Source: an uncultured bacterium
GTDB lineage: Bacteria; Acidobacteriota; Thermoanaerobaculia; Multivoradales; JAHZIX01
Length of the DNA stretch: 64,000 bases
Direction of reading: 5' to 3'
Assembly: GCA_965368975.1 (NCBI GenBank)
Contig: CBDUPA010000019.1
Coordinates: 64,001-128,000, forward strand
Position numbers and translations under genes: made by a program. The notes under the pieces were generated by a model. That model saw only the letters and a list, made by a program, of their open reading frames with translations. It had not been told where the DNA came from and did not search any database. Each line of letters begins with the position of its first letter. Within the stretch, counting starts at the first letter, position 1. Positions 2,132 through 46,413 of the stretch are shown here, in pieces.

Positions 2132-2221
2132 CTCTCAGCGCCTCGTCCTAGGAAATTCATCGAAACGGTCCACTCCTCACAACGCCGTGGACACGAGATC
2201 ATTCCGTCACTTCACTCTTGA

Positions 2222-17200: not shown

Positions 17201-20200
17201 GTGATGACTCCACAGGAAGCGGTAGCGCGTCGCCCCCTCCGCCTGTGAAGACGTCAACGCTGCGAACTCACGCGCCAGCAGCAGCCGCATCAGCGGCGCG
17301 GCACCGGCGGCAAAACCCTGGCGACGGTCGGCGTCGGCGAGGCCCTGCCACTCTGCCACACGGACAGGTTCCGGCAAGCGGCTCAGGTCGACTACCTGCA
17401 GCGGCAGCGGGTGCAGCGCCAGCGGGGATCCGCCGTCCGCCAAAGAATCTGACCAGGAATCCGACCAGGACGGCCACGCCCGCACCGCCTGCAGCGGCGT
17501 CTCGGTGTCGAGCGCGAAGAAGCCGGTGCGCAGGACCGCGTGGCGCTCGAGTAGCTGGTGCCAGGCGCGGTGGAAGGCCTGCACATCGAGGCCCGGGGCC
17601 AGGCGCAGCGTCAGCTGCTGGACGTAGAGCCCCTGGCCCGGCGCGCGCAAGCTGTGGAATAGCATGCCCTGCTGCATCGGCGTCACGGGATAGATGGCTT
17701 CGGGACGCCGGCCGTCGAGCGTCATGCGGACTAGCAGGTCGCGTGCGGCTGCCGCCAGCTCTTCGAGTGCCGAGGTCAGGCCATCGAGCAGCAGCTCGAC
17801 GGTCGCCCGCTGATGCCGGCTCGGCGCATAGCGCAGCGTCATTTCCAGGCGACCTTCGCGCACCGCGGCTTGCAGCTCCAACGCCAGGGGCCGCGGCAGC
17901 TCGGGGTCGACCTGCGGGCCGATCCAGGCCGGCACGTCCAGCCTCGGCTCCCAGAGCTGCGAACCGCCGGCAGCGTCGAGACGTCCCAGGTAGTTGAAAC
18001 CCAGGGTCGGCCGCGCCTTGGGGATCGGCGTCGGGAGCCCCTGCAGCACGCCCCATTCCGCGCGGCCATCCAGGCCGGCCAAGGCCCCCATTTCTGAGGA
18101 ATGACCGTCTGAGGCATGACTATCCGTAGCGTCACCCGGCCCGGGAGCGACACCGCGACGCAGCTCGTCCTGCGCCGTCCGTACCTTTTGTAGCGCCTCT
18201 GCCGGCTTCGCCGTGCCAGCACTCGCAGGCTGCAGCACCAGCGGAGTCTGCACGGTGAACCAGCCCGCGGTTCGGCTGACGTCGAGGGCACCGTCCAGCA
18301 ACACGTCGCGACCGTGGCCTTCGAGCTCGACCAGCAGAACCGGATGCCGCCGGTGCTGGCCTTCTGCCGGGCCGTCTGCTGGCTTCTCGAGTGGCTCCGC
18401 CTGCAGGTGTCGCGGCCAGGCGCGCAGCAGGGCGCTGAGCACGGCGTCGGCCAGGCTGCCGCCGTAGACACTCAGCGCATCCGTCAGCAGCGTTCCGGTG
18501 AGGTCGGTACTGAGGCGCCGCTCGACGCTCGCCTGCCGACCGAAGGTGTCAACTTCGGGCGAAGCAGTTTCGCGAGCAGCTCGGACATCTTCGGGCAGGT
18601 GCAGCACCGGCGCCGCCAGGTATGCCGCCCAGGCTGCCGCCCGTGCGGGAGCTTCCGGTGCCGCCGCGAGCTCGGCCAGGTGGCGACTCCAGGCGGTCCA
18701 GGGCGCCGTCTTGGGTGGTAGTCGACGCTCCAGGACGAGTGATTCCAGGTCGTCGAGCAGCAGGCGCCACGAGACCGCGTCGACCACCAGGTGGTGGCAC
18801 AGCCAGATCAGATACTCCTGAATGGGCGACTCCTCACGAGGAGATACACCCAGGACATGCAGCAGCCGCACCAGCGGTCCGCGTGCCGCGTCGAACGACG
18901 CCTGCGCTCGCGTCGCCAGGCGCTGCGCTTCGGCGGGCCGCCTCTCGGCGGGCAGGCCGCGCAGGTCGAGACAGGCGTACGGCGTTTCCGCGCGCGCCAG
19001 CGGCGGCAGGATCAGCGGCTCGCCAGCATTGTCCTCGGTTGCGGAGGCCCCTTCCGCCGGGACCCGCCAGACCAGGCGCAGCGCGTCGTGGTGACGCAGC
19101 AGACGGCCGAGCGCTCGATCGAGATGCCCCGGAGACACCTGGCGAGACGGCTGCAGCAACAAGGCTTGGTTGAAGTGAGCGGGCGCCCCGAGATTTCGCC
19201 ACCAGCGCTGGATCGGGGTCGGCGGTGTTGGGCCACTCACGGGACCCTGCTCCGCCTCGGGGCGAGCGCGCTCGGGCGACGCTTGCAGGTGCGCGGCCAG
19301 GCGGGCGACGCTCGGGTGTGCGAAGACGTCGCGCGCGTCCAGCTGCACTCCGGCTTGCTGCGCGCGGGCCACCAGCTGGATGGTCAGGATGGAGTCACCA
19401 CCCAGGGCGAAGAAATCGGCCTCGGCGTCGAAGGCTTCCAGATCCAGTTCCGCGCCTGCTGCCTGCAGGCCCAGCACTTGGATCCAGATCTCGGCCAGGC
19501 GACGCTCGAGGTCGCCCGCGGGTGGCCGGCCTACGGTACGGGTCGCACCCGCAGCACTCCCAACCCCGCCAAGCGCCGCCGAGCTGAGCTGCGGTGCCGG
19601 CAAGGCTTTCATGTCGAGCTTGCCACTGGCCAGCAAGGGCACGGTGTCCAGCACCACGAAGGCGGCCGGCACCGCGTAGTCCGGCAGGTGGGCCGCCGCC
19701 AGCTGGCGCAGGTCGTCGGCGGCCGGATCGGCGCTGCCCGCCGGCGTCACGTAGGCGGTCAGCAGGCGCTCGCCGGGGTGATCCTTGCGCAGCACCACCG
19801 CCGCCTCGCGCACCGCCGGGTGCTGGCGCAGCACGGCCTCGATCTCGGCCGGTTCCAGGCGGAAGCCGCGCAGCTTGATCTGGCGGTCGGCACGGCCCAG
19901 GAACTCCAGCTCGCCGCGAAAATCGCGCCGGGCCAGGTCTCCGGTGCGATAGAGCCGGCCACCTGCCACGCTGGCTTCGACGCCATCCGGAACGAACGCT
20001 TCGATGCCATCCGGAACAAACACCGTCGCCGTCTGCGCCGGACGGCCGAGATAGCCGCGTGCCACGCCGGGCCCACCGAGCACCAACTCGCCAGCGACGC
20101 CGCGCGGCACCGGTTGCTGGCCCAGTGCCTCCGCACCTGTCGCCAGCAGGTACAGGCGGACTCCGGCCAGGGGGTGTCCCAAGCGCAGGTTGCCCTGGCT

Positions 20201-23200
20201 TGCCGGAGCGGCGCCAGCGGAACGGCGCAGCACGTCCAGGTTGCGCGCCTCGATGGCGGTCGCGGTGACGGTGGTTTCGGTCGGGCCATAGGACGACAAG
20301 AAGTCCATCGGCCAGGGTGCCAGCCCGGCCCAGGTGCGCAGGTGCGCGTGTGGCACGCTCTCGCCACCGGTCAGGCACAGGCGCAGACGGCGCGGCAGCG
20401 GCAGGCCGTGGGCCGCCGTGTCGTCGACCCAGGCGCGCCACAGCGCAGCCGGCAGGTCGAGCACCGTCAAGCCATGGCGCGCGGCGTAGCCGAGCAGAGC
20501 CCGCCCGACCAGCAGGCGCGGCTGGCGCGGGATCAGCAACCCGGCACCGGCGCCGAGCGCCGGGAAGGTCTGCAGAACCGAGGCGTCGAAGCTGAGCGGC
20601 GCGAAGAGCATCAGGCGGTCCGCGGGAGTGAGCGCGAGCTGCCGGCGGAAGGTGGCGGCGAAGCCACCGGCGGAGGCCTGGCTGATCACGACGCCCTTGG
20701 CGGCACCCGTGGTGCCGGAGGTGTAGATCACGTAGGCGGCCGCCTGCGGATGGACCAGGCCCTGCTCCACCGCGACCGCCGCCGCATCCACCTCGTCGGC
20801 ATCGTCCTGAGGAGCGTCGTCCGACGTGGCATCCTCCAAGCGTGCCACCGTGGCGACACCCAACTCGGCCGCGAGAGCGGCATGCTCGGCGTCGGTCAAG
20901 ACCACGGCGAAGGCGGCGTCGGCGGCGAGCTGCTGCAAGCGCGACGGCGGAGCTTGGGGATCCACCGGCACGTACGCGGCGCCCGCCATGAGCACGCCGA
21001 GAATGCCGGTGAGGGCCCGCGGCGTGCGCTCGGCGAGCAGGCCGACGCGATCGTCCAGGCCGACCCCGGCCGCGCGCAGTCTGCCGGCGACGGCACGCGC
21101 GCCACAGACGAGCGCGGCGAAGCTGAGGTGGTGACGACCGGCGAGCAGGGCCACGGCGTCCGGACGCTGCGTCGCCTGCGCCACGACCGGCCCGTGTAGG
21201 CTGGGGCCGTGTAGGCTGGGGTCGGGCGAGTGAGGTACCGGGAGACCCTGGTATTCGAACAACAGTGCCTGGCGCTCGGTCGGCGGCAAGGCAGGCAGTG
21301 CCCCGAGTCGTGTCTCGCTGTCGACCGCCGCCGGCAACACCGTCCCGAGCAGCCAGTGCAGCTGGTGCAGCAGGGCACCGACCGCGACCGGCTCGAAGGC
21401 CTGCCACTGCGCGTCCAACTTCAGGTGCAAGCCCGCCGCCGCGCCGTCGGCACCCGCCGCCGGCTCGGCGATCAGGGTCAGGGGATAGTTCGTCTGCTCG
21501 CGCATGTGGGCGCGCCGGACGCGCAAGTCCTGCCCAGCCTGCTGGCTGGCGAGACGGTCGACCGGGTAGTTTTCGAACACCAGCAAGGTGTCGAACAGCT
21601 GCTCACCGGCAGGCAGGGGGCTCCAGCGCTGGACGTCGGCGAGCGCGACGTACTCGTGCTCGCGCACCTGCGCCTGTCGCGTCTGCTGCTGGTGCAGCCA
21701 CGACGTCACACGCTGGCTCGGTGCCAGGCTCAGGCGCACCGGCAAGGTGTTGATGAACAGCCCGACCATCTGGTCGATGCCGGACAGGTCAGCCTCGCGT
21801 CCCGACGACACGGCGCCGAAGACGATGTCCCGGTCGCCGCTGAAGCGTCCCAGCACCAGGCCCCAGGCTGCCTGCACCCAGGTGTTGAGCGTGACCCCGG
21901 CGTGGCGCGCGGCGGCGCTGACGGCCTCGGCCTGAGCGGCGCTCAGGTGCACCGAGCGCGCGAAATGGCCACCGTCTTGCTTGCCGGTCTCGGAACGGTC
22001 GTCCGTGCCCGCTTCCGCGGTGCTTGCTTCCACGGGCCGCTGTACAGCCAGCCGCGTGGGGGCACGCAAGCCGTCCAGGGTCGTGCGCCAGAACGTCTCC
22101 GCGGCGGCAGGATCACGCTCGGCCAGATCGCGCTCAGCCAACCAGGCGATGAAGTCGCGGTACGGACGAGCCGGAGCCAGGGACGTCGATGCGCCTCTCC
22201 GGCCTTCGCCCGTGGCGCGGGCACGACTTCCTGCCGCATAATGGGCAAGATCACCCGCCAGATCCCGGATCAGCAGGGCCATGGACCAGCCATCGAGCAG
22301 CAGGTGGTGGTGACTGCACAGCAACGCCGGTCCTTCCTCAGCGCGCGAGATCCACAGTAGGCGCAGCAAGGGCGGTCTCTGCAGGTCGAAGCCATGGCGG
22401 CGATCGGCAGCCAGCAGCTGGTCGAGTGCCCACGCGCAATCGTCGGTGCGCAGACCGTCGAGTTCGATACGGCTCCAGGGCAGCGGCACCTGGCGGTAGA
22501 CCGCCTGCAACGGCTGCGACCGATCCAGCCCCAGGATGCCGGTGCGCAACATCGGCTGCCGCGCCAGCAGTCGACGCCAGGCGGCAGCCATTGCGAGAGG
22601 AAGCGCCGCGGCGTCGAAGCTACCGTCGGTTTGCGGCTCCAGTTCGAGCAACATCTGCCCGACGTAGGCACCGTCGGTGGGGGCCTGCAGGCTGTGAAAA
22701 ATCATGCCGCGCTGCATCGGTGCCAGCGGATACAGATCCTCGATCGCTCCCCCCGCACGCTCTTGCAGCGACAGCAGCTGCGCGGTCTCGGCGGGATTGT
22801 CCGCGAAGCCCGCCAGCGGCACGTCCTCGGGCCACAGGCGCAGAGCCTGGGCCGAGTCGCCGTACTGCACCAGCTCGGCCAGGCGCTGACGGAAGCGCTC
22901 GGCACGCGCCGGCATGCTCGCCCCGGCTTCAGCGCCGTCCGGATAGGTCCAGCGCAAGCACAGCCGGCCTTCGATCACCGCGCCGTTGATCTCGTACGCG
23001 TGCGGACGCGGCTGCCGTGGGCTGCGCAGGCTCCGCACGGGTCGATCCAGAGGCTGCCACCGTCCCGCCTCTCCGGAACCGGACTGGCCGGAACCGGCCC
23101 GGCCGCTGCCCGTCAAGCCAGCGCCACCTGCCTGGCCGAGATAGTTGAACACCAGGTGCCGGGGCGGCAGGTTGGCCAGTGCCTTGGACGCGTGCGGCGG

Positions 23201-26200
23201 TCCCAGGTAGCGCACGATGCCGAAGGGAATGCCCCCCTCCGGCAGGGCTCGCAGCTGCCGCCGCACGCTGCGCAGGTCCGCGGCCGCCTCCGGCGCTTCA
23301 TCCAGGGGCAGCAAGACCGGGAACAACGCGGTGAACCAGCCGGCGACGTCGCTGCACTCGACACCGGGCAGATCGCGCCCGTGCCGCTCCAGGTCCAGCC
23401 AAAGAGCTGTGCTTTCGGCGCGGTCGGGCCAGGCGCGCGCCAGCACAGCGAGCAAGACCTCGTCGACCTTCATGCGCAGACGGCTGCTTACCGGACCGAG
23501 CAGACGCGTGGTCAGCTCGCGGTCGAACTCGACGTCGAGACTGGCGGTGCGCTGTGGCTCGGCGGCTTCGACCGCCGTGGGCAGAATCGTCGACGGACGT
23601 GACCCCAACCACGGCTCCAGCCAGCACAGCGCGCCGTCCAGGGTGCGGGAATCGTGCGCCAGACGGACCTGGGCCTGCGCCCAGTCGCGGAAGCTCGCCG
23701 ACGACCGTGCCGCAGCCCCGAACTCGCTGCCTGCCGCGGAGGCCAGAGCCGCGTAGCCCGCAGCCACATCGGAGAGCAGCAGACGCCAGGTCACGCCATC
23801 GACCACCAGGTGGTGGGCACACCACAGCAGCTCGGCCGGCGCGGTGCCGTAGGTGAGCAAGAGCACGCGCAGCAGCGGCCCGCGCGCGAGGTCGAAGCGA
23901 CCCTGAAGGGCCTCGCCCAGGCGCCGGGCTTCCGACTCACGCGCGGCCGGCGCCAGGCGTTCGAGATCGACATGCACCAGGCTGTCGAGCTGGCGCGCTT
24001 CAGCTCGCGACGCGTAGCGCTGCTGCCAGGTGCCACCGTCCTTGCCCGGACGCTGATCGAAGCGCAGACGCAGCGCGTCGTGACGTTCGGGCAGCTGCCG
24101 CAAGACCCGTCGCAGCAACGCCGGATCGAGCGGCGGATCGCCAGCGTCGCGCAGCCACCACGCCTGGTTGAAGTGGTGCGGGTCGCGCACGCCGGGACGC
24201 AGGAACCAGTGCTGGATCGGCGTCAGCGGAACCGGCCCCTCGAGCAGCCTGTCGGAACTGGGAGTGGTGGCGAAAGCTGGACCGGACTCGGCGACAGCGA
24301 CTCCCCCGCTACCCTGCTCCACGCCACTCTGCTGCAGGAGGGCCGCCAGCGCTCCCAGCGTCGGGTGCTCGAAGAGTTGACGCGGCGTCAGCGTGAGGCC
24401 GGCCTTGCGCGCCTGCGACACGACCTGGATGCTGAGGATCGAGTCGCCACCCAGCTCGAAGAAATGGGCATCGGCTCCCGGCAGGGTCTCCAGCCCCAGA
24501 ACCTGCTGCCACACTTCGGCCAGGCGAGCCCCCGTCGAGCCGAGCGTCGCAGAGGCCTCGGCCGTTCGCTCGAGGGCCGTGTCCTGCGCAGCTCCGTCCA
24601 TGGCCGTGCCTTCCATGGCCGTGCCTTCCATAGGGAGTGACCGCCGCGCCAGTTGGCTGCGGTCCACCTTGCCGTTGGGCAGCTGCGGCAAGGTCTCCAG
24701 CATCTCGATGCGCGACGGCACCATGTAGACCGGTAGACGGGTCCCGAGATGTGCCAGCAGGCGTCGACGCAGGCCATCCTCGTCCGGACTGTTCGCGACG
24801 CTGTCGCCTCGCTCCGCGGCCGGCTCGACGTAGGCGACCAAGCGCGTGCCCGCGTGCACCACGGTCACCGCGCGGCGCACCTCCGGGTGGCCGGCCAGCA
24901 GCGACTCGATCTCGCCCAGCTCGATGCGGAACCCGCGCAGCTTCACCTGGTGGTCGAGACGGCCCAGGTAGTCGAGTCGACCGTCGGCCAGGCGCCGCAC
25001 CAGATCGCCAGTGCGGTACATCCGCGAACCGCCTATTCTCAGCGCGGCACCATCACGGTCCGATTCGTGCCTGCACGGGCGTCCAGCGGCCAGCCCGGTG
25101 GCCAGCCCAGCGGCGAGTGCCGTAGCAAGTACTGGCACCGCGGGCAGGAAACGCTCAGCGGTCAGTGCCGGCCGCCCCAGGTAGCCGCGAGCGAGTCCGC
25201 CACCACTGAGATGCAGATCTCCCGCGACGCCGACCGGCTGCACGCGCGCATGGCGATCGAGAACGGCGGCGGTGGTCCCGGGCAGCGGCAGACCGAGTGT
25301 CACGCGCACGCCGTCTGGCGTGGACTTCAGCCGCGTGCCGGTCGAATAGGTCGTGTCTTCGGACGGGCCGTAGAGGTTGCGCAGCTCGACCCGCGGACGC
25401 AGCTGCAGCAGCTGCCCCGCAAGCGTCGGCGGCAACGGCTCTCCCGCCAGGTTGACCGCAGCCAGCGCCGGCGGCAGTGCGGCTTCTCCGTCTTGCTCCA
25501 GCGCCACCAGGGCGGTGAGTGCCGAGGGCACCGTGTTGACCAGCGAGACGCGCGCGGCGGCACGCAGGTGCGGCAGCTGCAAGGCGTTGGCCGCGAGCAC
25601 GACGCTGCCGCCGTGGACCAGCGGCGTGAAGAGTTCGAACACCGACAGGTCGAAGCACACCGACGTCGCCGCCAGGGTGCCCGCGAGCTGCGCCGCCGTG
25701 AAGGTCTGCCCGGCCCAGCGCATGCGCGCCACGGCCCGCCTGTGCTCGATCGCCACTCCCTTGGGCTTGCCGGTCGAGCCCGAGGTATAGATGACGTACG
25801 CTAGGCGCTCCGGACGGCTGTGATCCGGGAAGTTGTCCAGAGAATCGGCCAGGCTCGCCCCGGTCCGCTGCTCCTCCTCTGCGAGCGACACCTCTGCGAG
25901 CGACACCTCCACCAGCAACGCCGGATCCACCACCTCCACACCCGACGAACTCTCGCCACCGTCGCTGATCAGCAGCAGCGCGGCACCGGAGTCCTGCAGC
26001 ATGAAGACGGTGCGCTCGGCCGGATAGGCCGGATCGAGGGGGACATAGGCCGCCCCGGCGCGCAGCACGCCGAGCAGGCTCTCGACCAGCAGCGGTGTTC
26101 GCGGCAAGGCGACGCCGACGCGGGGCTCCGCCTCGGAACCCGTCAAGGCCTCCGCTGGCGCGATTCGGTCTGCGACCCCGGTAGCAATGCGGCCGGCACG

Positions 26201-29200
26201 GCGCCACAACTCGCGGTAGCTCACGTGCCGGGAACCGGCGACCAGGGCCACGGCCTCCGGCACGCGTCCAGCACTGGCGGCGACCAGCGAGGCGAGAGTC
26301 TCGCTAGCAAGAATGTCGCCGGTAGCCTTCCGCAGCGAGGCGGGGCCGTGCCACTCCTGGGCGAGCTGATGGCACTCGGCCGGGCTGAGCAGCTCGAGCC
26401 GTCGCAGGCGTTGTTGCGGCTCGGCCGCGAAGCCGGCAAGCAGCTGTCGATAGTGACCGAGCAGGCGCCGGATCGTCGTCGCGTCGACAAGGGCCGGCCG
26501 GTACTCGGCATCGAGACGCAGCGTACGAACACCGGCACCGTCCCGCAGCGGCGTGACGCTCAGACTGAGGTCGTACTTGGCGCCTCCAGCCGCGACCGAC
26601 AGCGGTCTCACTTCGACGCCCGGCAAGCCCACCGGAGCCGCCGACGGTGCCTCGGTGTTCTGCAGCACCAGCAGGGTTTGGATCAGGGGCTCGCGGTCGA
26701 GTCGACGTTCCGGCTGCAACGCCGCCACCAGCTGACTGAAGGGCAGATCCTGGTGGGCGTAGGCTTCGAGCGTCACGGCGCGCACGCGCTCTAGCACCTC
26801 GGCGACCGTCGGTCCGCCGGACGTCGTCGAGCCACCGAGATCGAGGCGCAGAGGCAAGGTGTTGACGAACACACCGAGCAGCGGTTCCAGCTGCTGCTGC
26901 GTGCGTCCCGCCACCGGCGTGCCGACGGCCAGGTCGGTCGCGGGATCGCCAGCGCCGCCGTGGCGGCTGAGCAGTTCGCCGAAGGCAGCCAGCAGCACCA
27001 TGAAGACCGTCAAGCCAGAACCAGTCAAGCCCGACGAGCGTGTCAGCTCTTCGATGGCAGCGGTCTCGGCCGGCGTCAGCGTCTCCAACAAGCGAGCACC
27101 ACGCGCCGCCTCAGCCGTGTCGACCGTCGACCGTGGACGATCGACCGGCAGTTCGACCGGCGGCGGCGGCGGATCCAGCCGGCGGCGCCAGACGCGCAAC
27201 AAGTCTTGCAGCCGTTCGCCCTGGAGCTGGCGGCGCTGAGCGACGGCGAAGTCGGCGTACTGCAGAGGCAGGGGTGGGATGGAGGCCGCTTCGTCGCCAT
27301 AGAAGGCACCGACCTCAAGCCACAGGCGATGCCACGACCAGCCGTCGGCGACGGTGTGGTGCAGCTCGATCAACAAGCGGTGCTTCGGCTCAGAGAGGTG
27401 CTTTGTGGCGGAGTCAGGAGCCGAGGGCAAGCGCAGCAACACAGTGCGCAGCAAGGGACCGCGCGAGAGATCGAAGCGACGCCCGGCCGCGCGGGCCAGC
27501 AGCTGGTCCGCGAGTGTGCCCACTGCGATAGCCGCCACTTCGGAACTGCTCCCCGCCAGCGCCCCTAGGTCGACGACAGGCAGCGCGGTACTCGCGCGCA
27601 CGATCGGCGACGAGGCGGGCAGGATCTCCTGGTAGGGACGCCCGTCCAGTTCGGGCAAGCGCGTGCGCAGCACTTCGTGCCGCTCGACGACCCGCCGCAA
27701 CGCCGCGCGCAAGCGCGCCACGTCCAGACGGCCGCGCAGCTCCAGGGCCGCCGGCAAGTTGTACGCGGTGCCACTGTCTTCCAGGCGCTCCAGGAACCAC
27801 AGGCGCTCCTGGGCAAAGCTCAGGGGCGGATGCTGGGGTCGCGGCGGTAGCAGGTCCAGATCGAGGTCGACCGCATCGAGAGGGATGACTCGATCGGCCT
27901 CGGCTGCGGCCGACAAGCCAGGGTCCCGCGCCTCGAGCAAGCCCGCCAGGGCGTGGGGCGTCGACGCCGTGAACAGCTCAGGCAACGACAGCTCGGCCCC
28001 GATTTCGTCGCGCAGCAGCGACAGGAAGCGGGTGGCGAGCAGGGAGTCGCCGCCCAGCTCGAAGAAGTCATCCTGCGCACCGACCTCGGGCACGCCCAGC
28101 AAACGGCCGAGCAGCGCGGCGATGCGGCCGGCGACAGTATCGTCGATGTCCGAGGGCGCAACGGCCGACGAAGCGACCTCCACCTCCGCGTCGACTCGCA
28201 GGGGCATTGAAGGGGCCGAATGGGGCTGGGCGGGGCCCGTCTCGCCAGCCCACAGCGGTGCTATGCCGTCCAGCTCGACCCAATGACGCTGCCGCTGGAA
28301 GGCGGTTCCCGGCAGGTGCCGGCGCCGCGGTGTCTGGGTCGCCGAGCCGTCGAAACGCTGCCAATCGACATCGGCGCCCGCCAACCACAGACGTCCCAGC
28401 GCCTCCAGTGCACGGGCTCGATCGTCCTCCTGGGCCTCGGCAGCATCGCTTTGCCGGCGCATCGACGCAATGGCGGTCACCGGCTTTCGGCTCGGGACAT
28501 CACTCTTGGGTTGCAGGCCATCCTGTCGCAGCGTCTGGCGCGCCAGGCTGCCGAGGGTGCGGCCCGGTCCGACTTCCAGTAGCACCAGGTCCTCGAGTTG
28601 ACTCAGGCACTCGACGCCGTCGGCGAAGCGTACGGACCGGCGCAGGTGACGGGCCCAGTAGTCCGGATCCTGGGTCTGCTCGGCGGTCACCCAGTCGCCG
28701 GTCAGGTTGGAGATGTACGGCAGGGTGGGTGGACGCAGCTCGACGCGGCCGACCGCTTCGGCGAAGGCAGCGCAAATCGGCTCCATCATCGCCGAGTGGA
28801 AGGCGTGGTCGGTCGGCAGGCGGCGGCAGCTGATGCCGTCCGCTTCGAGCCGCGCCTGCATCGCTTCGACCGCCGCGACCGGCCCGGTCAGCACGCACAC
28901 GGACGGTGCATTCACGGCCGCGACTTCGACCCGCTCGCCTGGGTTACCAGCTTCGTCCTGGGACGCTTGCAGGTAGCGCGCTTCGATGTCGCTGCCGGCA
29001 GCCGCCACGCTGACCATGGCACCACCGTCCAGCGGCTCCATCAATTCTCCACGCAGCGCCATCAGGTCGAGCGCGTCGCGCAAGCTCAGCACGCCGGCCA
29101 GCGTCGCAGCCGCGTACTCGCCGACGCTATGGCCGAGCAGCGCTACCGGTTCGATCCCCCAGTGCTGCCACAGTCGCGCCAGTGCCACCTCGACCAGCAG

Positions 29201-32200
29201 CAACGCTGGCTGCGCCCAGCGCGTGCGCCGCAGCTGTGCCGCGGCCTCGCTGTCGTCGGCGGGCGCGTGCAGCAGGGTGCGCAGATCAAGCCCCAGGCGC
29301 GAGCGCAGGTGCTCGGCTCCCTCGTCGATCCAGCGCCGGTACTCGGGCTCGGTCTCGTACAGGGCCGCGCCCATGCTGGGGAACTGGCTCCCCTGCCCCG
29401 GCAGCAGGAAGGCGACGCGCGGCCGGGCACTGCCGGCGGTGATCGCGCGCAGGTGTGCAGGCACGTCGCGGCTGCGCAGCGCGCGCATGGCTCCGGCCAC
29501 ATCGCGGCACACCACCAGGCGACGTGTCGGCCAGCGTGGACGGCCGCTGCGCAGCGTATGCGCCACATCCGCCAGATCGGGGGCGGCCAGATCGGGGGCG
29601 ATGCGCTCGGAGACGACCTGCTCGTCCAGCCAGGTCGCCAAGTCCTCGCAAGTGGTGTGCAGGGCCGCCGGTGTGTGCGCCGATAACAGCAGCAGGTGCC
29701 AGGCGTCCCCGGCGGCGCTCTCGGCGGGTGGCTTCGGCTCGTCGGCGACAGCTCCGGCGATCGCGGAAGGTGCCTGCTGCAGCACGACGTGCGCGTTGGT
29801 GCCGCCGAGCCCGAAGGCACTGACACCCGCACGGCGCGGCAGCTCGGAGGACGGCCAGGACTCGGCCTGGCCGCTGACGTAGAAAGGCCCCTCCTCGAAG
29901 GGAGCCGCCGGATTGGCCGTCTCGAAGCCGGCGGTCGGCGGTACGACGCCATGACGCAGCGCCAGCACCGTCTTGATCAGGCCAGCGATCCCCGCCGCCG
30001 CGCCCAGGTGACCGATGCTCGCCTTGACGGCACCCAGGGGTCGCCGGTCGTCGACCTCGGCGAACGCCCGGTTGAGCGCCGACACTTCGATCGGATCGCC
30101 CAGCTGCGTGCCCGTGCCGTGCGCCTCGACATAGCCGATCGTGGCCGCCTCGACCGCAGCGTCGGCGTGCGCGGCCGCGATCACGCGGGCTTGGGCCTCG
30201 ATGCTCGGGGCGGTGAAGCCGGCTTTGTGCTTGCCGTCGTTGTTGACCGCCGAGCCCAGCACGAGGGCATGAATCGGGTCCCCCGAGGCCAAGGCATCAT
30301 CGAGCCGACGCAAGGCCACCAAGCCAGCACCACTACCCCAGACGGTGCCGTCGGCCGCCGCATCGAAGGCTCGGCAGCGACCACTCAGCGCATCGATGCC
30401 GCCTTCTTCGTACAGATAGCCCGTGACCTGCGGCACCTTGATCGACACACCACCGGCCAGGGCCAGGTCGCAGTCACCCGCGCGCAGTGCACGGCACGCC
30501 AGGTGCACCGCCACCAGGGCGGTGGAACACGCCGTCTGGACGCTGACGGCGGGGCCGCTGAGCCCCAGGCGGTAAGCCAGCTGGGTGACGAAGTAATCAC
30601 GGTCCGCGCCCATCGCCAGCTGGTAGGCGCCCACCTCGCGCAGCAGGTTGGGATCGCGTTGCAGGTAGTGCAAGAAGTAGGTGGAGAGCGTGCCACCGGC
30701 GAAAACGCCGATCGAGCCGGCAAAGCGTTCGGGATCGACCGCAGCATCGTCGAGAGCGAGACGCGCGGTCTCGAGCAACAACCGCACCTGCGGATCGAGC
30801 AGCTGAGCCTGACGCGGCGTCAGCCCGAAGTGCTCGGCGTCGAAGTCCTCGACACCGTCGAGCACGCCCCGACCGCGCACCAACTTCGGATGCGTCACCA
30901 GCTCGGCAGGCAGGCCCGCCGCCAGCAACTCTTCGTCGGTGAAGCGGCGCACCGCCTCGCGACCGTCGAGCAGCTGCCGCCAGAAGGCGTCGACATCGGG
31001 CGCACCCGGGAACCGGCCCGCCATGCCGACGATGGCGATCGGTACGGCACTCTCGCCAACACCGGCACTGGCACTGGCACTGGCACCGGCCGGCCGAGAC
31101 GCTTGCAGCACCTGGGCTCGGACCGCCGGCTCCGACGTCTCCAGCAGGCGTGCCAGGTAGCGAGCCTGCCCGCGCACCGTCGGATGCGCGAACAGCTCGA
31201 CCAGCGGCAGCTCACGGCCCGCCAGCTGCTGCAAGCGCGCGTGCAGACGCACCAGCAGCAGCGAGTGACCGCCGAGGTCGAAGAAACTGGCTTCCGGGTC
31301 GACCGCTGGCACTTCGAGCAACTCGGCCCACAACGCCTCGATGTCGCGCTCCAGCCGTTCTTCCGGCGTCGAGCCGGGCAGCAGCGGCGCGGCGGCCAGT
31401 TCGGCTCCAGAAACGGCTCCAGGCACTACCTGTGCCGACGAAGCCAGTACCGACGAAGCCAGTACCGACGAAGCCAGTGCCGACGAAGCCAGCGCCGGCA
31501 GACGCTGGGCCAGGGCGCGGCGATCGACCTTGGCGTTGGCGGTCAGCGGTAGTCGATCGAGGACCTCGAAGGCCGCGGGCACCATGTAGGCCGGCAGACG
31601 CTGCAGCAACGCGGCGCGTACCGCTCCGGGGTCGATCCCGCCCGTGGCAACGGCCCCCGCCGATCCCGCCTGGGGCACAAGGAACGCGACCAGGCGACTG
31701 GCCACTCCCAGCTGCGGTCCCCTCAGCCCAGTACTACTGCTCGGGCCCTGCGCCAGCACCACCGCCTCGCGCACCTCTGGCAGGGCCACTAGGACCGCTT
31801 CGATCTCCGCCGGTTCGACGCGGAACCCGCGAATCTTGATCTGCTTGTCCCGGCGACCGGCGAACGCGACTTCGCCATTGGGTAGATAGCGGCCGAGATC
31901 GCCGGATCGATAGAGGCGAATCTGCGACTGGGTGCGGGCAGCGTCAGGATGGACTACATCCGGTGTGAACGCCAGAGCCGTGGCGCGGGGATCGTCCAGG
32001 TAGCCGCGCGCCAGGTGCGGACTGCGCACGGCGATCTCGCCCAATTCGCCGACGCCCGCCGGGCGGTGGTCGCGATCCAGCACCAGCAACTGCACATCGC
32101 GCATGCCGTGCCCGAGCGGCAGCACGGGACGCGCAACATCGGCCGCCGAGGCGACGTGGTACGAAACCGCTCGCTGGGTCTCGGTCGAGCCGTAGAGGTT

Positions 32201-35200
32201 GACCACGGTGACCGACGGCGCCAGCTGCCGCAGGCGCTCGACATCGCGACCACGCAGCGCCTCTCCCACCAGCAGGACTCGGCGCAGCGCGGGCAGGCGC
32301 ACTGGTTGCGCACGGACAGCCTGCGCACGGACAGCCTGCGCACGGATCGTGTCGCCTTCGCACAAGACCTGTCCCAGCGCTGGCGTCAAGTGAGCGACCG
32401 TCACCCCGACCTCGGCCATCCAGGCGGCCAGCCGACCGGCAGCGGTCAAGTCTCGGGGATCGGGAACGGCGAGCTCAGCGCCCAGGAAAATCGGCGTGAA
32501 CAGGTCGCGCTGCAGCGGATCGTGACCAAGGCCAGAGAGCAGGCTGAAACGGTCGTCCGGTCCCATTTCCAGCGTCGCGCACTGCCAGGGCAGGAAGTGA
32601 GTCAGCGGTCCGTGGCGCCCCTCGATTCCCTTGGGGACGCCAGTGGAGCCGGAGGTGAAGGCGACCAGCGCCAGGTCTTCGGGACCGATCTCGACGTCGG
32701 GCACGGCGGTTCCGGTCGTCGGTAGGCCTGTCGTCGGCAACTTCTGGACGAAGTCGAGGGTCTCGGCTTGGCTGCCGACCGGCAGCTGCAGCAGGGAGGC
32801 CGTGCGCTGCTGGCACCAGGTCGCGACACTGGGACCCTCTTCGTCGCGCGCCGGCGCCAGGCTAGACAGCACCGCGGTTTCTGCCGCTGGTGGCAAGAGT
32901 TCCAACACGGCGCTCGGTCGCGCCGCATCGAGCATCTGAGCACGACGCACGGCTGGCCACGCCGGGTCGAGCAGGACCAGCGCGGCCCCCGCCTTGAGAA
33001 CGCCGAGGACCGCCGGCAGCAACACCGCGGCACGCCACGTCAGGATCGCCACGCGGTCGCCGCGCCGTACCTCGTGCGCCACCAGCCAAGCCGCCAGCGC
33101 GTCACTGACGACCGCGACCTCGCCATAGCTCCAAACGCCGTGTCGATCCCGCACCAGGGGCCTCTCCGGCTGGCGACGCGCGTGCTCGGCGAAGTGCTGG
33201 TGGATCGGGCCGTGCCAGCTGGTCTCCAGGATCTGTCGTGGGTCTGGCAGCAGCTGCGCCGCCTCGACAGTGCGCAAAGGCAATGCCGCCAGCTGCTGAT
33301 CAGGGTCCGCCACTGCCGCCGTCAGCAGCGTTGCCAGCTGGCGGGGCCAATCCTCCATGCGCGCGGCGTCGAACAGCGCGGCGTCGTAGTGTAGCTCCCA
33401 GCGCAAGCCGCCATCCGCCAGTTCCTCAATGTAGAAGGTGACGTCGAACTTGGCCGGCAGTTCCGGCGGCGTCAGCAGGTCGACCTCCAAACCGGCCAGC
33501 GTCGGCGTCACCGGCGGCAGGTTGAGCAGGTTGACGAAGACCTGGAACAGGGGCGTTCGAGCCGGGTCCCGCTCCGGGCGCAAGCGCTCCAGCAGCGCCT
33601 CGAACGGGACGTCCTGATGCCCGAAGGCCCCGATTGCGGCGGAACGGACGCGTTCCAGGAGTTGCAGGAAGCTCAGCCGAGGCGTCACCTGGGCCCGCAG
33701 CACCAGGCTGTTGAGAAATAGGCCCACGATGCTCTCGGTCTCGACGTGCTGGCGCCCGGCCACCGGCGTGCCGATCGCGATGTCCGTCTGACCGCTGTGG
33801 CGGGCCAGCAAGACCTGGATCGCCGCCGTCAGCACCATGAACAGCGTCGCTCCGCCGCGCCGCGCCAGCGCCCGCACGCCATGGACCAGGGTCGCGGGCC
33901 AGTGTTGATGAACACTGCCACCCGAGGCATCGGGGTCTCGTCGCGGCGGTCGTGGACGGTCGGTGGGGAGTTCGAGGACTTCCAGCCCCTCCAACGTCTC
34001 GGACCACCAGTCGAGCTGTGCCTGTGCCCGCCGGGCGACAAAGCCGCGCTGCCAGAGCGCGAAGTCGGGGTACTGCAGGCGCGCGGGCGATTCCGTGTGC
34101 CTCGCGCCCTGTCGCTCTCCTGGGCGCTCGCCTGGCTGGTCGTTTGGCTGGTCGCCTGACTGGTCGCCTGGCTGGCCCGCCTGCCAGCCCGCCTGCAGAT
34201 CACGCATCATGAGCCCGAGCGACCAGCCGTCGGCGGCGATGTGGTGAACGTTGAGGTGCAGGTGGTGCCGGTCACTAGCCAACCGCAGCAGCAGTGCCTT
34301 CAGCACCGGGCCGCGCGACAGGTCGAACGACCGGCCACCATGCGCCGCGCCCAGTTGCCGCGCCACGGCGTCGGCTTCGGCGGCATGCGCATGAGAAAGC
34401 GTCAAGCGGCGCAGATCGATCACGGGCAGCCGTAGCGCCGCCGGCTCCTGCACGATCTGCCGAGGCTCATCGCTGGTATTGGACACGAAGACCGTGCGCA
34501 GCGCCTCGTGGCACGCCACCAGGTGGTCGAGCGCGGCGCTCAGCCTGGCGACCTGGAAGGTCCCGATCAGTCGCAGACCCGCGGCAATGTTGTACGCCGC
34601 GGACCCGACCTGGAGTCGGTCGAGCAACCACAGACGTTGCTGCGAGTACGACAGGGGAAGTTCGCGCAGCCCTGGCGGCCGGACGGTAGGGGCTTCCTCG
34701 TAGGTTACCTCTTCGATGGAGGCCTGCTCGATGCCCACTTCCCCGATAGGGACCTGCTCGACGGATGCCTGCTCGATGGCTACTGGCGGCGCTGGCACGG
34801 AGAGCGGCAGCTCGGACCAGCGCAGCAAGGCTTGTCGCCGCGCGCCGGCCGGCAGGCTAGGGAGTTGGAGATGGGGTAGCTGCTCGAGCGGCGTGTCGGG
34901 CTGCGCCAGAATCACCTCGAGCAGGTTGGCGATGTCATCCACCCAGCGCAGTGCCGTCGCGTCGTCGAACAGGTCACGAGCGAAGGTGAGCTCACCGCGC
35001 AAGCCCTCGGGCCAGCGCTGCACCATCAGGGTGAGGTCGAACTTCTCCGCCGGCAGGACGGGCGCGGCCGAGACGTCGAGGCCATGCAAGGCAGGTGGCT
35101 CGAGCACCCGGTCATTCCACGCCAGCATGGTCTGGAACAGGGGCGAGCGGCTGCGCTCCGGTCTGGTTTCGAGCGCCTCGGCCAGGCGTTCGAAGGGCAG

Positions 35201-38200
35201 CAGGCCGTGCGCAAAGACGTCGAGCACCCGGCGGCGGACCGTCTCCAGCAGGGCGGCGAACCCATCGCCCTCAGGGTTTCCTTGCGCCGGTACCCGCACC
35301 ACCAGCGTGTTGGCGAAGTAGCCGATCAACGGCTCGAACTCGGGGCGTTCGCGTCCCGCGATCGGGAAGCCGATGGCCACTTCCGCCTGCCCAGCATGAC
35401 GCCCGAGCAACAGCCCCCAGGTAGCCAGTAGCACCATGAAGGGCGTCGCGTCTTGCTGGGCCGCGAAGCGTTCCAGGCGCTCCAGCAGCTCTGGCGACCA
35501 GCCGAGCGGCAGCAAGCTGGAACGGTGGCTCGGCCGCGCCGGCCGTGGCCGATCGGTCGGCAGGTCGAGGACCGGCAAACCGGAGAGTCGCGGACGCCAC
35601 CAGGCCAGTTCGTGCTCCACCACGTCGGAGCTCAGCAAGCGCCGCTGCCAGACCGCATAGTCAGCGAACTGGAACTGCAAGGCCGGCAGCGCCTCGGAAC
35701 CGCCATGACAGAGAGCGTTGTAGAACCACTCCAGTTCCTGCAGCAACACCGCCACCGACCAACCGTCCGCGGCAATGTGGTGCAGGTTGAGACCCAGCAC
35801 ACAGTCGTCGCTCGCCGTGCGCCAGACGGTGGCCCGCATCAGGGGACCGGCGGCCAAGTCGAAGGGCTGGCGTGCCGCCGCTGCCAGAGGCGGAGCAACA
35901 CCGGGGACCTCGGTCAGGTCGACGACCTGCACGGGAAACCGGGCCGGCAGCGCGCCGGCAGGCTGAATCACTTGTACCGGCGAACCGCCGGCGGTGCGCA
36001 TGACGGTTCGCAGACTCTCGTGCCGAGCGACCACGAGGGCCAGAGATCTCTCCAGGACCCGCACCTTCAGGTCCCCGCGCAGGCGTAGCCCCACGGGGAT
36101 GATGTAGGCCCCGGTTGCCGAGCCCAGGCGGTCGAGCAGCCACATGCGTTCCTGACCGAACGACAGCGGCGGCAGGTCCTCCGGCACACCGCTGGCACCT
36201 CGACTCAGTGCGACCAAGGGCGTCGCCGCCAGGCTGGCGGCACTGTTGGTTCTCGAGGCGGTTCTCTCAGTACCCGCCTCAGCCTCAGTGATCGCTCCCG
36301 ACGCCGCGTGATCGACTCCCGGGATCGTTGCCAGGGTGGCCGCCAGGTCGGCGACCACGGGCGCTTGAAAGATCGTCTCGAGCGGTACCTCGACGTGGAG
36401 TTCGAGCCGCAGCCGCGCGGCCAGGCGTGTCGCCAGCAGCGAGTGTCCACCAAGCTCGAAGAAGTCGTCGCCGCGCCCCACGTGCTGGCGCTGCAGAACC
36501 TCGCCGACGGCCCGGGCCACCAGAACTTCCAGCCCTCCACGCGGAGCCTCATAGGCCTCGCCCACTGTCTGCATGGCGCGCGCGGCCAGCAGCTTGCGAT
36601 CGACCTTGTGATTGGCGGTCAGCGGCAGCGCATCGAGCCGTTGCAAGGCGGACGGCACCATGTAAGGCGGCAGCCGCCGGCCGAGCTGGCTGCGCAGGAG
36701 TGTCTCGTCGAGATTGCCAGCGCCGGGTGCCGGCACCACGAAAGCCACCAGGCGCGCGTGGTGTTCCTCCCCCACCACCAGCACGGCCGCCTCGTCGACG
36801 CCCTCCTGCTGGCGCAGGGCCGCCTCGATCTCGCCCAACTCGATGCGAAAGCCGCGGACCTTGACCTGGTGGTCGAGGCGGCCGAGGAAGTCGAGCCGCC
36901 CATCGGCGCGCAGGCGGCCCAGGTCGCCGGTGCGGTACATGCGGGCCCCCACCTGGCGCCTGCCGCACGCGAGCTCACTGGTGGACACCGCCGCCGGCAC
37001 GTCGAGCTGTGGCACGAAGGCCATGGCCGTGGCCGCCGCCCGTCGCAAGTAGCCGCGCGCAACGCCGGCACCCCCGAGCACGATCTCGCCCGCAGCGCCC
37101 AGCAGCACCGGCCGCTGCGTCCGATCCAGCAAGTAGATTGCCACGCCATCGACCGGCCGGCCGATGGGCGGCACGCCTACAGCGCCTTCGGGCACCCAGC
37201 CATAGGAGGCCACGACGGAACTCTCCGTCGGCCCGTAGTTGTTGACCAATTCGAACGGCAAGCCAGGCCGTGGCGCCGCGTGCAGACGATCGGCTCCGGT
37301 CAACAGCAGGGACAGTCGCGCGCCACGCGGCCACGACAAGCGCATCAGCTCTTCAGCCAGCGGTGACACCAGGAAGGTCGACTCGGCACCGCGCGTCAGG
37401 AACCAGTCGCGCAGTCGCGGAGGATCGCTGACCGCAGCGTCGGAGGGTACCTGCAAGGTCGCGCCGCAGGTCAACACCGACCACAGGTCCCAGACCGCGA
37501 CGTCGAAGCCCAGGCCCGAGACGAGCGTGGCGCTGCGGCGGGCGCCCGGCTGGTCTGGCCCCCCGATCGCATACCGGCGCTGGTGCCAGTCGATCAGGTT
37601 CGCCAGCCCAGCGTGGTGCACCTGCACGCCCTTGGGTCGCCCGGTGGAGCCGGAGGTGAAGATCATGTACGCCAGCTGTTGGGGCTCCGGGGCCTGTAAC
37701 TGAGGGGCCTGTAACTGAGGGGCCTGTAGCTGAGGGGCCTGTAGCTGAGGCGTTGGGCCTCGCCACGGTGTACCTTCCGGTTCGACCGCGGTCAGCACGC
37801 GAGCCGGCAGCTTCCCGGGCATCTCATCGAGCCGAGCCTCGGTCGTGATCAGGATCGGGTCGCGCCCGTCGAAGGCCGCCAGGTCCTCCAGCACCGCCTG
37901 TAACCGCTCGACCGGCAAGGCAAAGTCGAGCGGCACATAGGCTCCGCCGGCGTAGAGGACGGCCAGGGCGGCCGTGACGTAGTCGGCACCGCGCGGCAGT
38001 AGCACGGCGACCGGGGTTTCAAAGCCGACATCCAATACACGCAGTCGCCCGGCCAGCGCCTGCGCGCGCTGGTCCAGGCAACGGTAGGTGACGCCCAGAT
38101 CGAGCCCCCGGCCAGCGCCCGCCACCGCAGTATCGACCGCGTCCGTGCCTGCGTCCGCGACCCAGACGGCTACCGCGTCCGGGACTTGACGCGCAGCAGC

Positions 38201-41200
38201 TGCCACGCGCTGCGGGATGGCCTGGAAACGAGCACCATCATCGCGGGGTCTCGGCTCGAAGGCAGCGTGGTTCCACTCCAGCAGCCACTGGTGACGCTGG
38301 GCCACCGTCAGCAGCGGCAAAGCGGCAACCGGGGTCGAGGGTGCGGTCAGCGCCGCCTGCAGCAGGTGCTCCCAAGCCCCCAGCCAGCGCTGCACGGTGC
38401 TGGCATCGAACAGGTCGCTGGCCGCGAGCAGCGACGCGGCGAGGCTGGACCTGGGCCCGGACGGCACCATGGCCAACCGCAGCACCAAGTCGAAGGTGGC
38501 CGACCGCTCCGGCAGTTCGATGGATTCGAGAGTCAGGCCGCCATCCCCGGGGCCACCCATCTTCAAGGTTCCCCCGGCCAACCCGAGCGCGAAGGCGGCG
38601 AGGCCGGCGTCTTGCGCCAGTCGTGGACGCTGCAGCGTCAGCATGGTCTGGAACACCGGCGAGCGCCCCGGGTCGCGTTCCGGATGCAGCACTTCGGCCA
38701 GGCGTGGGAACGGCAGCTCCGCGTGCGCCAGGGCCGCGACGACGCGGTCGCGTACCTGCCGCAACAAGCCGCCAAAGTCGAGCCCTTCCGAGCTTGTACC
38801 CAGATCCACCGCGATCGCCAGGGGGTTGACGAAGTAGCCCACCAACGGTGCCCACTCGCCCCGGCGACGACCCGCCGAAGGGATGCCGACAATCAACCGC
38901 CGCTGGCCAGTGAGGCGACCCAGCAAAACGGCCCAACTGGCCAGCAGTACCGTCAGCGGCGTCGCTTCGGCGGCGCGCGCAACAGTACTCACCGAAGACT
39001 CTTCGAGGGCCAAGCGGCGCGTCACCGCCAGCCCGCGCTGACTCGGCTGTGCCGGTCTGGGGCGATCAGTCGCCAGGTCGAGCACCAGCGGCACGTTCGC
39101 CAGGCGCTGTCGCCACCAGGCTTCCAGCTCTTCGCCCTGGTCGACGAGACAGCGTGTCTCATCGCGCACGAAGTGACCGTAGTCCGCGGGGAGCGGCGCA
39201 AGCTCCAGAGGCAGTACCTCGGCGGCGCACAGCTCACCGAGCTCACGAACCAGCACGCTCAAGGACCAGAAGTCCGCGATGAGATGGTGAATGACCAACA
39301 CCAGCACGGCCGAACCGTCCGCCGTCGAGGCCCCCTCCTCCTCGAGCAGGGCGACGCGTACCAGGGGCCCTGCCTCGAGATCGAAGGGCCGGTCAATCAG
39401 AGCTTCGAGCGCCTCGGGAGTGGCCCGGGGAGTAGCCCCGGCACCGACGACCAGCTCCGGTACCACCTGTCGTCGCACCCGTCGCAGGTCTCCCTCAGGA
39501 GCCGTGAAGGTGGTGCGTAGCTCGCCGTGACGCTGGGCCAAGAGCGCCAGGATCCCTCGTAGGCGGGGCTCGCTTGGCGCAGGGGAAATCCGAGCCGCGG
39601 CCGCGATGTGATAGGCAGCGGCGCGCGGTGCCTGGCGCGCTAACAACCAGAGGGCGCGTTGGCCGTAGGAGGGGTCTTCGTCTTCGTCGCCGAGATCGTC
39701 CTTGCTCGACGCCGGCGTCTCAGCTTCCCGACCCTGTCCCGGCCCCGGTTGGATCGCCGCCAGCAGTCGGGAGGCCAGACCCTTGAGATCCAGATCGCCG
39801 AGTAGCACATCGACCGGAACCTCGACACCGAAGTCTTGCTGCACCCCATGCTGCAGCTGCACGACATCCAACGAGTCCAGGCCCAAAGAGGTGAGCGGCT
39901 GATCCGCGCGCACAGCACTCAGCGGCTGATCCGCCGCCGCCGCCAAGCGACGCTTGAGTTCCAGGCGCAGCAGCGGACCGCGTTCGTCCTCGTCCATGGC
40001 CAGGAGCAGCGCGCGATCGATGCGCAGCTCATCCCCGTCGTCTGACACGGTGTCGCTCTGCCGAGTACCGTCCTGCGGCGTCTCGGACTGCACCGCCGCG
40101 GGACGCGCCGCACCGCTCCGTGCCACCACGTTCAAGCTCTCGTCGAGGTAGCCACGGCGGCAGGCATGACGCTGGATCTTGCCGCTCGACGTCTTGGGCA
40201 CGCTGCCGGTGCGCAGCAGCACGATTTCGTGCAAGCGCACCTCGTGCCCCTCGGCCAGGGCCTGCCGCACGGCGTCGAAGATCTCCTCGTTGGACGCGTC
40301 GGGATGGCGCACCACCTCCGCGACATAGACCAGTGCCTCGCCGCCCGCGGCTTCGTCACCCGTCGGATCGACCGCGAAGGCGGCGGAACAACCAGCCCGC
40401 AGGGCACTGTGCGCCGCCTCGGCGGTGGCTTCCAGATCCTGTGGATAGTGGTTGCGCCCGCGCAGGATGATCAGGTCCTTGAGCCGGCCGGTGACGTAGA
40501 GTTCACCGTCTCGCAGGAAGCCGAGGTCACCTGTGCGCAGCCAGCCGTCCCTCTCTTGGGAAGAGCCGGCTAGATTTGCGTCGAAGGTCTCGGCGGTCAC
40601 CTCCGGCCGGCGCCAGTAACCACCCGCGACGCTCGGACCGCGCACCCAGATCTCCCCGACGGTGCCTTCGGCCACGGGTTGCGCGGTCTCGGGATCGACC
40701 AGGCGCACGTCCTGCGCGTGACGGTCGACGCGGCCGCTGCTGACCAGGGAGCGTGCCGTGCCGGCGTCCGCGCTCGCCGATGTACTTGGCTCGTCTCTGC
40801 CCTGCTTCGCCTGCCCCTGCTCCAGCGCCGCGGCGTCGAAGTCTCCGCGCACGAAGCCGCGTCCGGGCACCGCGCCGGTGACGAAGAGCGTCGCCTCGGC
40901 AAGTCCGTAGCACGGGAAGAAGATGTCGCGCCGGAAACCGCAGTCGGCGAAAGCATCGGCGAAGGCGTCAAGGGTGGCGGCACGCACCGGTTCGGCACCG
41001 TTGAAGGCCAGACGCCAACTCGACAGGTCGAGACCCGCTTTCTCTTCGTCGCTGACCTTGCGCGTGCACAACTCGTAAGCGAAGTTGGGGCCGCCGCTGG
41101 TAGTCGAACGGTACTTGCTGATCGCCTGCAGCCAGCGCACCGGCCGCTGCAAGAATGCGACGGGCGACATGAGGACACAGGAGGTCTGCAGATACAGCGG

Positions 41201-41971: not shown

Positions 41972-42043
41972 CTGAAATCTCTCCCATCTCCCCGACACAC
42001 CCCTACTCCGTGAATCAAATAGAAAGAGAACGCGAAAGGATTA

Positions 42044-43908: not shown

Positions 43909-43999
43909 AGGTTGCTCCTTCAGGCGTATATTGACGATGCTCTTTCGATATGTTTCTTCAGCAATTCCGGACCAGATTAGGCAGTTCAGAACAGCCAGG

Positions 44000-45334: not shown

Positions 45335-45345
45335 TCCATGTGCTC

Positions 45346-46350: not shown

Positions 46351-46413
46351 CACTGCTCCTCCAATTGTAGATGCCCGATAGCGGACCAAAGTAAATCAAG
46401 GGAAACGGCGGCC

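Follow-up and report, generated by a model that had tools for sequence, protein, structure and literature searches.

What does an adenylation (A) domain of the type found in fungal alpha-aminoadipate reductase (Lys2) do when it stands in an elongation module of a bacterial nonribosomal peptide synthetase (NRPS)? This question is raised by a 64,000-nucleotide stretch of DNA from an uncultured member of the Thermoanaerobaculia (Acidobacteriota; assembly GCA_965368975.1, contig CBDUPA010000019.1, positions 64,001 to 128,000), referred to here as the window, in which a giant hybrid of NRPS and polyketide synthase (PKS) carries one such domain and which holds 12 complete ordinary A domains besides it. 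We find that this domain is a member of the Lys2 or 'DPRH' clade, and that A domains of the Lys2 type are common in uncultured Acidobacteriota. By analogy with characterised relatives, the domain probably loads an acidic alpha-amino acid onto its carrier via the distal (side-chain) carboxyl. The relationship to Lys2, which a preliminary description of the window had put forward, is here tested and supported, and the side-chain-loading mechanism is a plausible prediction for which a precedent exists in a bacterium.

The domain belongs to a hybrid open reading frame (ORF) of 13258 aa that contains no stop codon, in a window of about 70% G+C. Pfam searches of three long pieces and 53 overlapping tiles of the translation, combined with pairwise comparison of the condensation-type domains and the FNYLG motif to separate condensation (C) from epimerization (E) domains, gave the order FAAL-T-C-A-T-C-C-A(Lys2-type)-T-KS-AT-ACP-C-A-T-E-C-A-T-E-C-A-T-C-A-T-C-A-T-E-C-A-T, in which the Lys2-type domain is the second amino-acid A domain (module 2). 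Features of the module and its surroundings, assigned with Pfam unless stated otherwise, are as follows.

2222..41998, minus strand: hybrid NRPS-PKS ORF, 13258 aa, a single open frame from 41998 to 2222
34877..36169, minus strand: condensation domain Ca, first of a tandem pair (aa 1944-2374, HHIAADGWSV)
33272..34663, minus strand: condensation domain Cb, second of the tandem pair (aa 2446-2909, HHIAADGWSL), immediately before the Lys2-type A domain
31529..33193, minus strand: Lys2-type ('HDP') A domain (aa 2936-3490, code DPRHLVLRAK; Pfam AMP-binding and AMP-binding_C)
32498..32536, minus strand: A4 motif with code positions D235, P236 and R239 (from the translation)
32159..32200, minus strand: A5 motif with code positions L322, R330 and A331, common to Lys2 (from the translation and the comparison with Lys2)
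31154..31345, minus strand: carrier (T) domain of the Lys2-type module, serine motif GGHS
29924..31042, minus strand: ketosynthase (KS) with intact Cys-His-His (TACST, HGTGT, IGH; Pfam and motifs)
28439..29410, minus strand: acyltransferase (AT) with GHSVG and HAFH motifs (Pfam and motifs)
27935..28126, minus strand: acyl carrier protein (ACP), GGDSL
26363..27832, minus strand: C domain passing the ACP-bound chain to the next amino acid (next A code DLFNNALTYK)

Two aspects of this arrangement had been missed in the preliminary description, namely that a KS follows the Lys2-type module and that two C domains precede its A domain. The HAFH motif of the AT is presumably of the malonyl type, and Pfam detected no ketoreductase (KR), dehydratase (DH) or enoylreductase (ER) between AT and ACP. 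Neither was there a Pfam match to an NAD-binding or reductase domain in the ORF after the Lys2-type T domain, where KS-AT-ACP stands instead. The module also contains two in-frame low-complexity repeats, IRAQAVRAQAVRAQPVR (32297-32347, minus strand) in the part of the A domain that separates the code-278 region from A5, and ALASSALASSVLASSVLASS (31436-31495, minus strand) in the A-T linker.

The coordinates given earlier for the A domain, 31510-33210, agree with the Pfam boundaries at 31529-33193, and all four motifs that had been quoted for it were recovered from one open frame in the minus-strand translation of 31000-33700. Codes of ten residues were read via motif anchoring, with positions in what we take to be the PheA numbering, and this re-reading returned the same code, DPRHLVLRAK. 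The A3, A5, A7 and A8 motifs and the A10 lysine are intact, while A4 has HDP instead of FDxS, giving D235-P236-R239, and H278 lies within TVAHLTP; the HDP-type A4 residues and H278 are also present in all ten of the genuine Lys2 ORFs compared (see below). By comparison, the seven other codes of the 13258-aa ORF (DVWFLGNVVK, DLFNNALTYK, DALDLGSVTK, DVWHVSLVDK three times, and DANLIAYVVK) and the five of the NRPS encoded upstream (DIFNNALTYK, DAKDLGVVDK, DVWFLGNVVK, DAWFLGHIVK and DIFDNALTFK) are all ordinary. The top NCBIfam match of the A-T pair is TIGR03443, the Lys2 equivalog model, at 450.5 bits (E 1.1e-134, profile positions 233-733 of 1390), compared with 342.6 bits for the generic model TIGR01733. 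Two control A domains from the same ORF showed the opposite order (181.9 bits for TIGR03443 vs 359.5 for TIGR01733, and 200.5 vs 418.4), and chance resemblance to Lys2 can therefore be dismissed. At 450.5 bits the domain falls below the whole-protein cut-off of 1030.1 and is not itself a Lys2 equivalog.

For comparison with genuine Lys2, genes were recovered from metagenome contigs using a degenerate DNA pattern for a 12-residue Lys2 motif. Of the 27 matching loci, on contigs of 33-66% G+C, most are uninterrupted ORFs of 1357-1576 aa, the others being shorter or cut at a contig end. All six ORFs tested exceeded the TIGR03443 cut-off at full A-T-R length (1941-2418 bits), which identifies them as genuine aminoadipate reductases. 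Ten ORFs gave the code DPRHFVMRAK in nine cases and DPRHFVMRSK in one, bearing out the likeness in motifs and code noted in the preliminary description. The window domain has eight of the ten code residues in common with them (D235, P236, R239, H278, V301, R330, A331 and K517) and differs by two conservative changes, F299L and M322L. Over its whole length it is 36-41% identical to Lys2 A domains; the corresponding figures are 54% for the closest relatives in bacteria and 30-36.5% for the ordinary A domains of the window. The Lys2 signal thus sits in the motifs and pocket more than in bulk identity.

For phylogenetic trees, A domains were excised with a hidden Markov model trained on those of the window. 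When 106 domains were analysed, all those with the HDP motif fell into one clade (Shimodaira-Hasegawa approximate likelihood ratio test, SH-aLRT, 100; branch length 0.42), which is separate from 38 ordinary domains and takes in two further rows that the motif pattern had missed. A quick tree of 116 rows, to which 10 Lys2 sequences were added, united HDP and Lys2 domains in a clade of 78 rows (SH-aLRT 100), with the Lys2 group (support 100) placed within the HDP clade; a subclade of 48 rows (support 96), characterised by TETQRA as its A5 motif and consisting of 34 domains of the TETQRA type, 10 Lys2 and 4 others, contains the window domain. In a more careful tree of 55 rows, 20 ordinary A domains, including the window's other 12, split off at 100/100, and TETQRA-type domains and Lys2 together formed 25 rows (93/99). 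A phylogeny including Lys2 had been proposed as a check in the preliminary description, and in it the domain groups with Lys2; on the evidence of the 55- and 116-row trees, it does not cluster with ordinary alpha-activating A domains. The idea of a fungal domain inside a bacterial module is nevertheless misleading, as the clade is large and bacterial, with fungal Lys2 nested in it. Bushley and Turgeon 2010 (PMC2823734) had already noted A domains from bacteria in a sister position to the aminoadipate reductases of fungi.

The spread of this clade was followed in two protein pools. A representative search, which ranks proteins by summed A-domain scores and so favours megasynthases, served as a sequence pool only; the HDP-type motif occurs in at least 38 of the 150 proteins that it listed, in some of them twice. 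Among the best 120 near-length matches, which are without exception fragments from bacteria and include no Lys2, at least 98 carry the motif, and these come mostly from metagenome-assembled genomes (MAGs) of Thermoanaerobaculia, other Acidobacteriota, Longimicrobium and Pyrinomonadaceae. Both counts are lower bounds, as the pattern missed SALSHDP variants. Of the genomes that bear a name, MAGs of Thermoanaerobaculia and Acidobacteriota come closest, with 51% identity, and TIGR03443 matches at E <= 1e-90 were found in 8 of 21 genomes (the window's own and 20 relatives). The window's genome (7.1 Mb in 59 contigs, 99.3% complete) is unusually rich in NRPS: its A-domain matches at E <= 1e-30 number at least 149, including those in open frames of 12957, 13272 and 14804 aa. 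Three of the matches are HDP-type A domains, of which two (our loci L001 and L002) belong to a second subtype, in which A5 reads TETPQ and DPRHFGFQVK is one of the codes. In Pseudomonas the TETPQ subtype occurs in a stand-alone 982-aa protein (L014 5803-8748; also L015 and L016), about 400 C-terminal residues of which have no Pfam match, and whose gene neighbours encode catechol dioxygenase, phenol hydroxylase and a FecR/TonB receptor pair. On plasmid bgla_1p of Burkholderia gladioli BSR3 it forms part of a C-A-T-C-A(HDP)-T-TE synthetase (L083 7273-16818), whose flanks hold a type I PKS, a gene for MbtH and two genes for phytanoyl-CoA dioxygenases; the possibility that this plasmid NRPS represents the bolagladin cluster was ruled out.

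Which carboxyl does the domain activate, and of what substrate? That Lys2 adenylates the delta-carboxyl of 2-aminoadipate is established (reportedly by Ehmann et al. 1999). As no structure from the clade has been solved, the functional argument proceeds by homology: the top structure matches of the window domain are generic NRPS A domains with no close solved structure among them, and matches in the ESM Atlas are to generic A-domain clusters only. PvdL was considered as a member of this type and rejected (E 3.6e-8, on the A3-A6 stretch), a possible relation to myxoprincomide led nowhere, and the strings DPRHFVMRAK, DPRHSGVVGK, DPRHLVLRAK and TETQRA had no match in full-text literature. Side-chain-carboxyl loading, as first suggested in the preliminary description, is supported by analogy with the characterised DPRH-type domains that could be documented, Lys2 and Zmn16 A1 (from zeamine synthetase), both of which load in this way. 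In the mechanism that we propose, D235, R239, H278 and R330 would hold the alpha-amino and alpha-carboxylate groups of the substrate, provided that the equivalence of positions assumed here is correct. The substrate would be 2-aminoadipate, glutamate or, less likely, aspartate, the first two being favoured because R330, V301 and A331 are common to Lys2. The upstream C domain would acylate its alpha-amine with a fatty-acyl-Leu-like chain. The KS would then add one malonyl unit to the side-chain thioester, giving a beta-keto acyl-ACP whose chain the next C domain would join to an Ala-like residue. Such extension and transfer to a C domain would be expected whichever carboxyl forms the thioester. 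From extension of a side-chain thioester it would follow that the backbone runs through the side chain and bears a free alpha-carboxylate.

The hand-over to a KS recurs in related loci. Among 13 loci of the TETQRA type with visible downstream context (a further locus, L092, ends at a contig edge and is not counted), a KS follows the module, either fused or in the next gene, in seven (the window, L085, L086/87, L089, L090, L004 and L006), and a C domain in five (L003, L007, L008, L011 and L088). In the remaining locus, L005 (a Holophagales MAG, ORF 3-9173), the frame goes on for about 950 aa beyond the A-T pair; this stretch includes another carrier motif, and no KS, C or A match was found in it with the profiles used. 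The PKS modules concerned are KS-AT-ACP in the window and L090, KS-AT-KR-ACP in L004, KS-AT-KR-DH-ACP in L087 and L006, and KS-AT-?-ACP in L089. In the protein pool, the domain that comes next was distributed as follows.

Ordinary A domains (783 in total): KS 1, C 668, protein end 64, other 50
TETQRA-type A domains (128 in total): KS 2, C 39, protein end 77, other 10

Neither the next-domain nor the locus counts represent independent events, since fragments of contigs make up much of the protein pool and the genomes that supplied the loci are related.

Drawing these results together, we put forward as possible, rather than probable, the wider proposal that a large bacterial Lys2-type clade, with fungal Lys2 nested in it, is repeatedly wired to a PKS module in Acidobacteriota; that chains there would grow through the distal carboxyl of an aminoadipate or glutamate residue and next through a malonyl unit, so that a 2-amino-omega-oxo-dicarboxylate whose alpha-carboxylate is free would be embedded in the backbone; and that the fungal lysine enzyme may have a bacterial NRPS origin. 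To our knowledge, such a backbone-embedded unit is not known from any described natural product.

A number of observations weigh against side-chain loading or against aminoadipate as the substrate. The regiochemistry is argued from homology, and as the large bacterial clade is wholly uncharacterised its specificity may have drifted. Identity to Lys2 is only 36-41%, a range that one ordinary A domain of the window enters at 36.5%. McyE, ACVS A1 and Zmn16 sequences were left out of the trees, and the placing of Lys2 relative to the bacterial rows is modestly supported (85/70 to 92/91) in a tree that is unrooted and whose bootstrap had not fully settled. As to the supply of aminoadipate, neither TIGR03251 (LAT, lysine 6-aminotransferase) nor TIGR02144 (LysX) rose above its cut-off in the genome, other routes to it not having been searched. 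In addition, a 2025 survey places a DPRH code, DPRHVSLLAK, under 'Asn-activating' domains (PMC12283262), and no DPRH string is present in the text of its supplement.

The uncharacterised state of the bacterial clade and the survey entry would suit a rival reading, in which the domain belongs to the Lys2 clade by descent and has been retuned to the ordinary alpha-carboxyl of, for example, Asn, Asp or another polar residue, so that a normal peptide bond is formed and the KS builds a gamma-amino-beta-keto unit. The ordinary C domain that comes next in 5 of the 13 loci with visible context would fit this arrangement, as would the general observation that units of amino acid plus malonate are common in NRPS-PKS hybrids. 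Against it, 8 of 10 code residues are the same as in genuine Lys2, and the one bacterial DPRH domain documented here with a solved product has a side-chain link. Moreover, the upstream NRPS carries the ordinary-type acidic code DAKDLGVVDK, which we take to be a Glu-type code and which indicates that alpha-loaded acidic residues here use a different type of domain. We therefore consider alpha-carboxyl loading unlikely.

The tandem C domains bear on whether the module is active. Ca and Cb are 40% identical, both carry HHIAADGWS, and they are separated by a linker of 72 aa with no A-T between them. Ca (aa 1944-2374) was considered as an epimerase and rejected: it is 39-40% identical to C1, Cb, C3 and C7, compared with 21-23% to the three E domains, and it does not have their FNYLG motif. 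A comparable spacing is seen at a Kitasatospora locus (L029), where two HHxxxDG motifs lie about 420 aa apart before an HDP-type A domain. A C-C arrangement can arise by loss of an A-T pair, and together with the low-complexity in-frame repeats inside and just after the A domain it could mark a decayed module in which the domain is inactive or skipped. We regard this as highly improbable, given that A3, A5, A7, A8, A10, the carrier serine and the Cys-His-His of the KS are all intact within a giant ORF without a stop.

Beyond the start of the giant ORF lie the following genes.

42044-46389, minus strand: four genes directly upstream of the giant ORF, encoding Transket_pyr+Transketolase_C, Transketolase_N, a DegT/DnrJ/EryC1 aminotransferase and a second Transket_pyr+Transketolase_C (Pfam)
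46764-47588, plus strand: FGE-sulfatase (formylglycine-generating enzyme-like) ORF of 274 aa, between the transketolase genes and the NRPS that ends in TE (Pfam)
47581-63999, minus strand: second NRPS with five A domains, ending T-TE, its start beyond the window edge (Pfam)

In another reading, prompted by the genes for a transketolase in split form and an aminotransferase of the DegT family directly upstream (42044-46389), the substrate might not be a simple acidic amino acid at all, being instead a diamino-dicarboxylate, a beta-amino acid or the product of these neighbouring genes. The two preceding C domains could serve a substrate with two nucleophiles, and the code departs from that of Lys2 at two pocket positions. 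These departures (F299L and M322L) are however conservative, and the identical code DPRHLVLRAK recurs in six other domains of five unrelated proteins among the 150 listed by the representative search, as well as in L003 and L004; modules with the same code have a single upstream C domain (their flanks being short and not searched for transketolase). An unusual substrate thus appears decidedly unlikely, and an acidic alpha-amino acid loaded through the side chain remains our preferred reading. A different role for the neighbouring genes is also conceivable: as the PKS module is without a KR, a trans-acting aminotransferase working on the beta-keto group of its product is one idea.

The size of the clade, its frequent ketosynthase coupling and the nesting of fungal Lys2 inside it make these domains worth following. 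The repeated passage of the chain to a KS points to a defined amino-diacid-ketide unit, and the free alpha-carboxylate predicted for it could play a part in binding metals or recognising a target. How fungi acquired an enzyme of their lysine pathway is a further question, on which the placement of Lys2 inside a clade of bacterial NRPS domains bears. There is also a practical consequence for NRPS-rich Acidobacteriota: since predictors return 'Aad' for such codes and the solved bacterial case is a side-chain-linked Asp, structure predictions will be wrong at Lys2-type positions until one member of the clade is assayed.

How, then, does the domain compare with known systems? The kind of domain is already known, in that predictors label such codes 'Aad' and both zeamine and microcystin carry side-chain-linked acidic residues. 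With Lys2 it has in common the A-domain clade, the HDPxQRD and HLTPAxGQ motifs, a further motif of 12 residues, and TIGR03443 as the top-scoring profile. Lys2 itself, a free-standing A-T-R enzyme, belongs to primary metabolism and reduces its thioester, whereas the window domain is part of a C-C-A-T elongation module with no reductase, from which the thioester would pass to a KS.

McyE, which presumably has a DPRH code as well, offers an elongation-module A domain beside PKS parts with an iso-linked acidic residue. It differs in having its PKS part before the A domain and a fused aminotransferase domain, the PKS module of the window coming after the A domain. The D-Glu of microcystin is given as D-iso-Glu in PMC2174460.

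VinN-type enzymes (VinN and BolO) are free-standing and load separate ACPs, in contrast to a domain embedded in a 13258-aa ORF. VinN-like chains of the Protein Data Bank such as 3wvn, presumably VinN, match the window domain at E 9.4e-32 and rank below many ordinary NRPS A domains.

A precedent for a DPRH-type code inside a multimodular bacterial NRPS is Zmn16 A1, whose published code, DPRHLALLAK, agrees with that of the window domain at 8 of 10 positions and was predicted to specify '2-aminoadipic acid' (PMC3547906). The first residue of prezeamine is a side-chain-linked Asp by nuclear magnetic resonance, written 'gamma-aspartate' in PMC5811116, and the fabclavine counterpart of Zmn16 A1 is alike by the authors' statement. 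Compared by published code only, Zmn16 A1 differs in having L at position 330 (R in the window) and A at 301 (V in the window); it also occupies a starter position, is followed by a C domain rather than a KS, and takes Asp as its substrate, whereas the domain described here would hand an acidic residue, loaded through its side chain, from within the chain to a ketosynthase.

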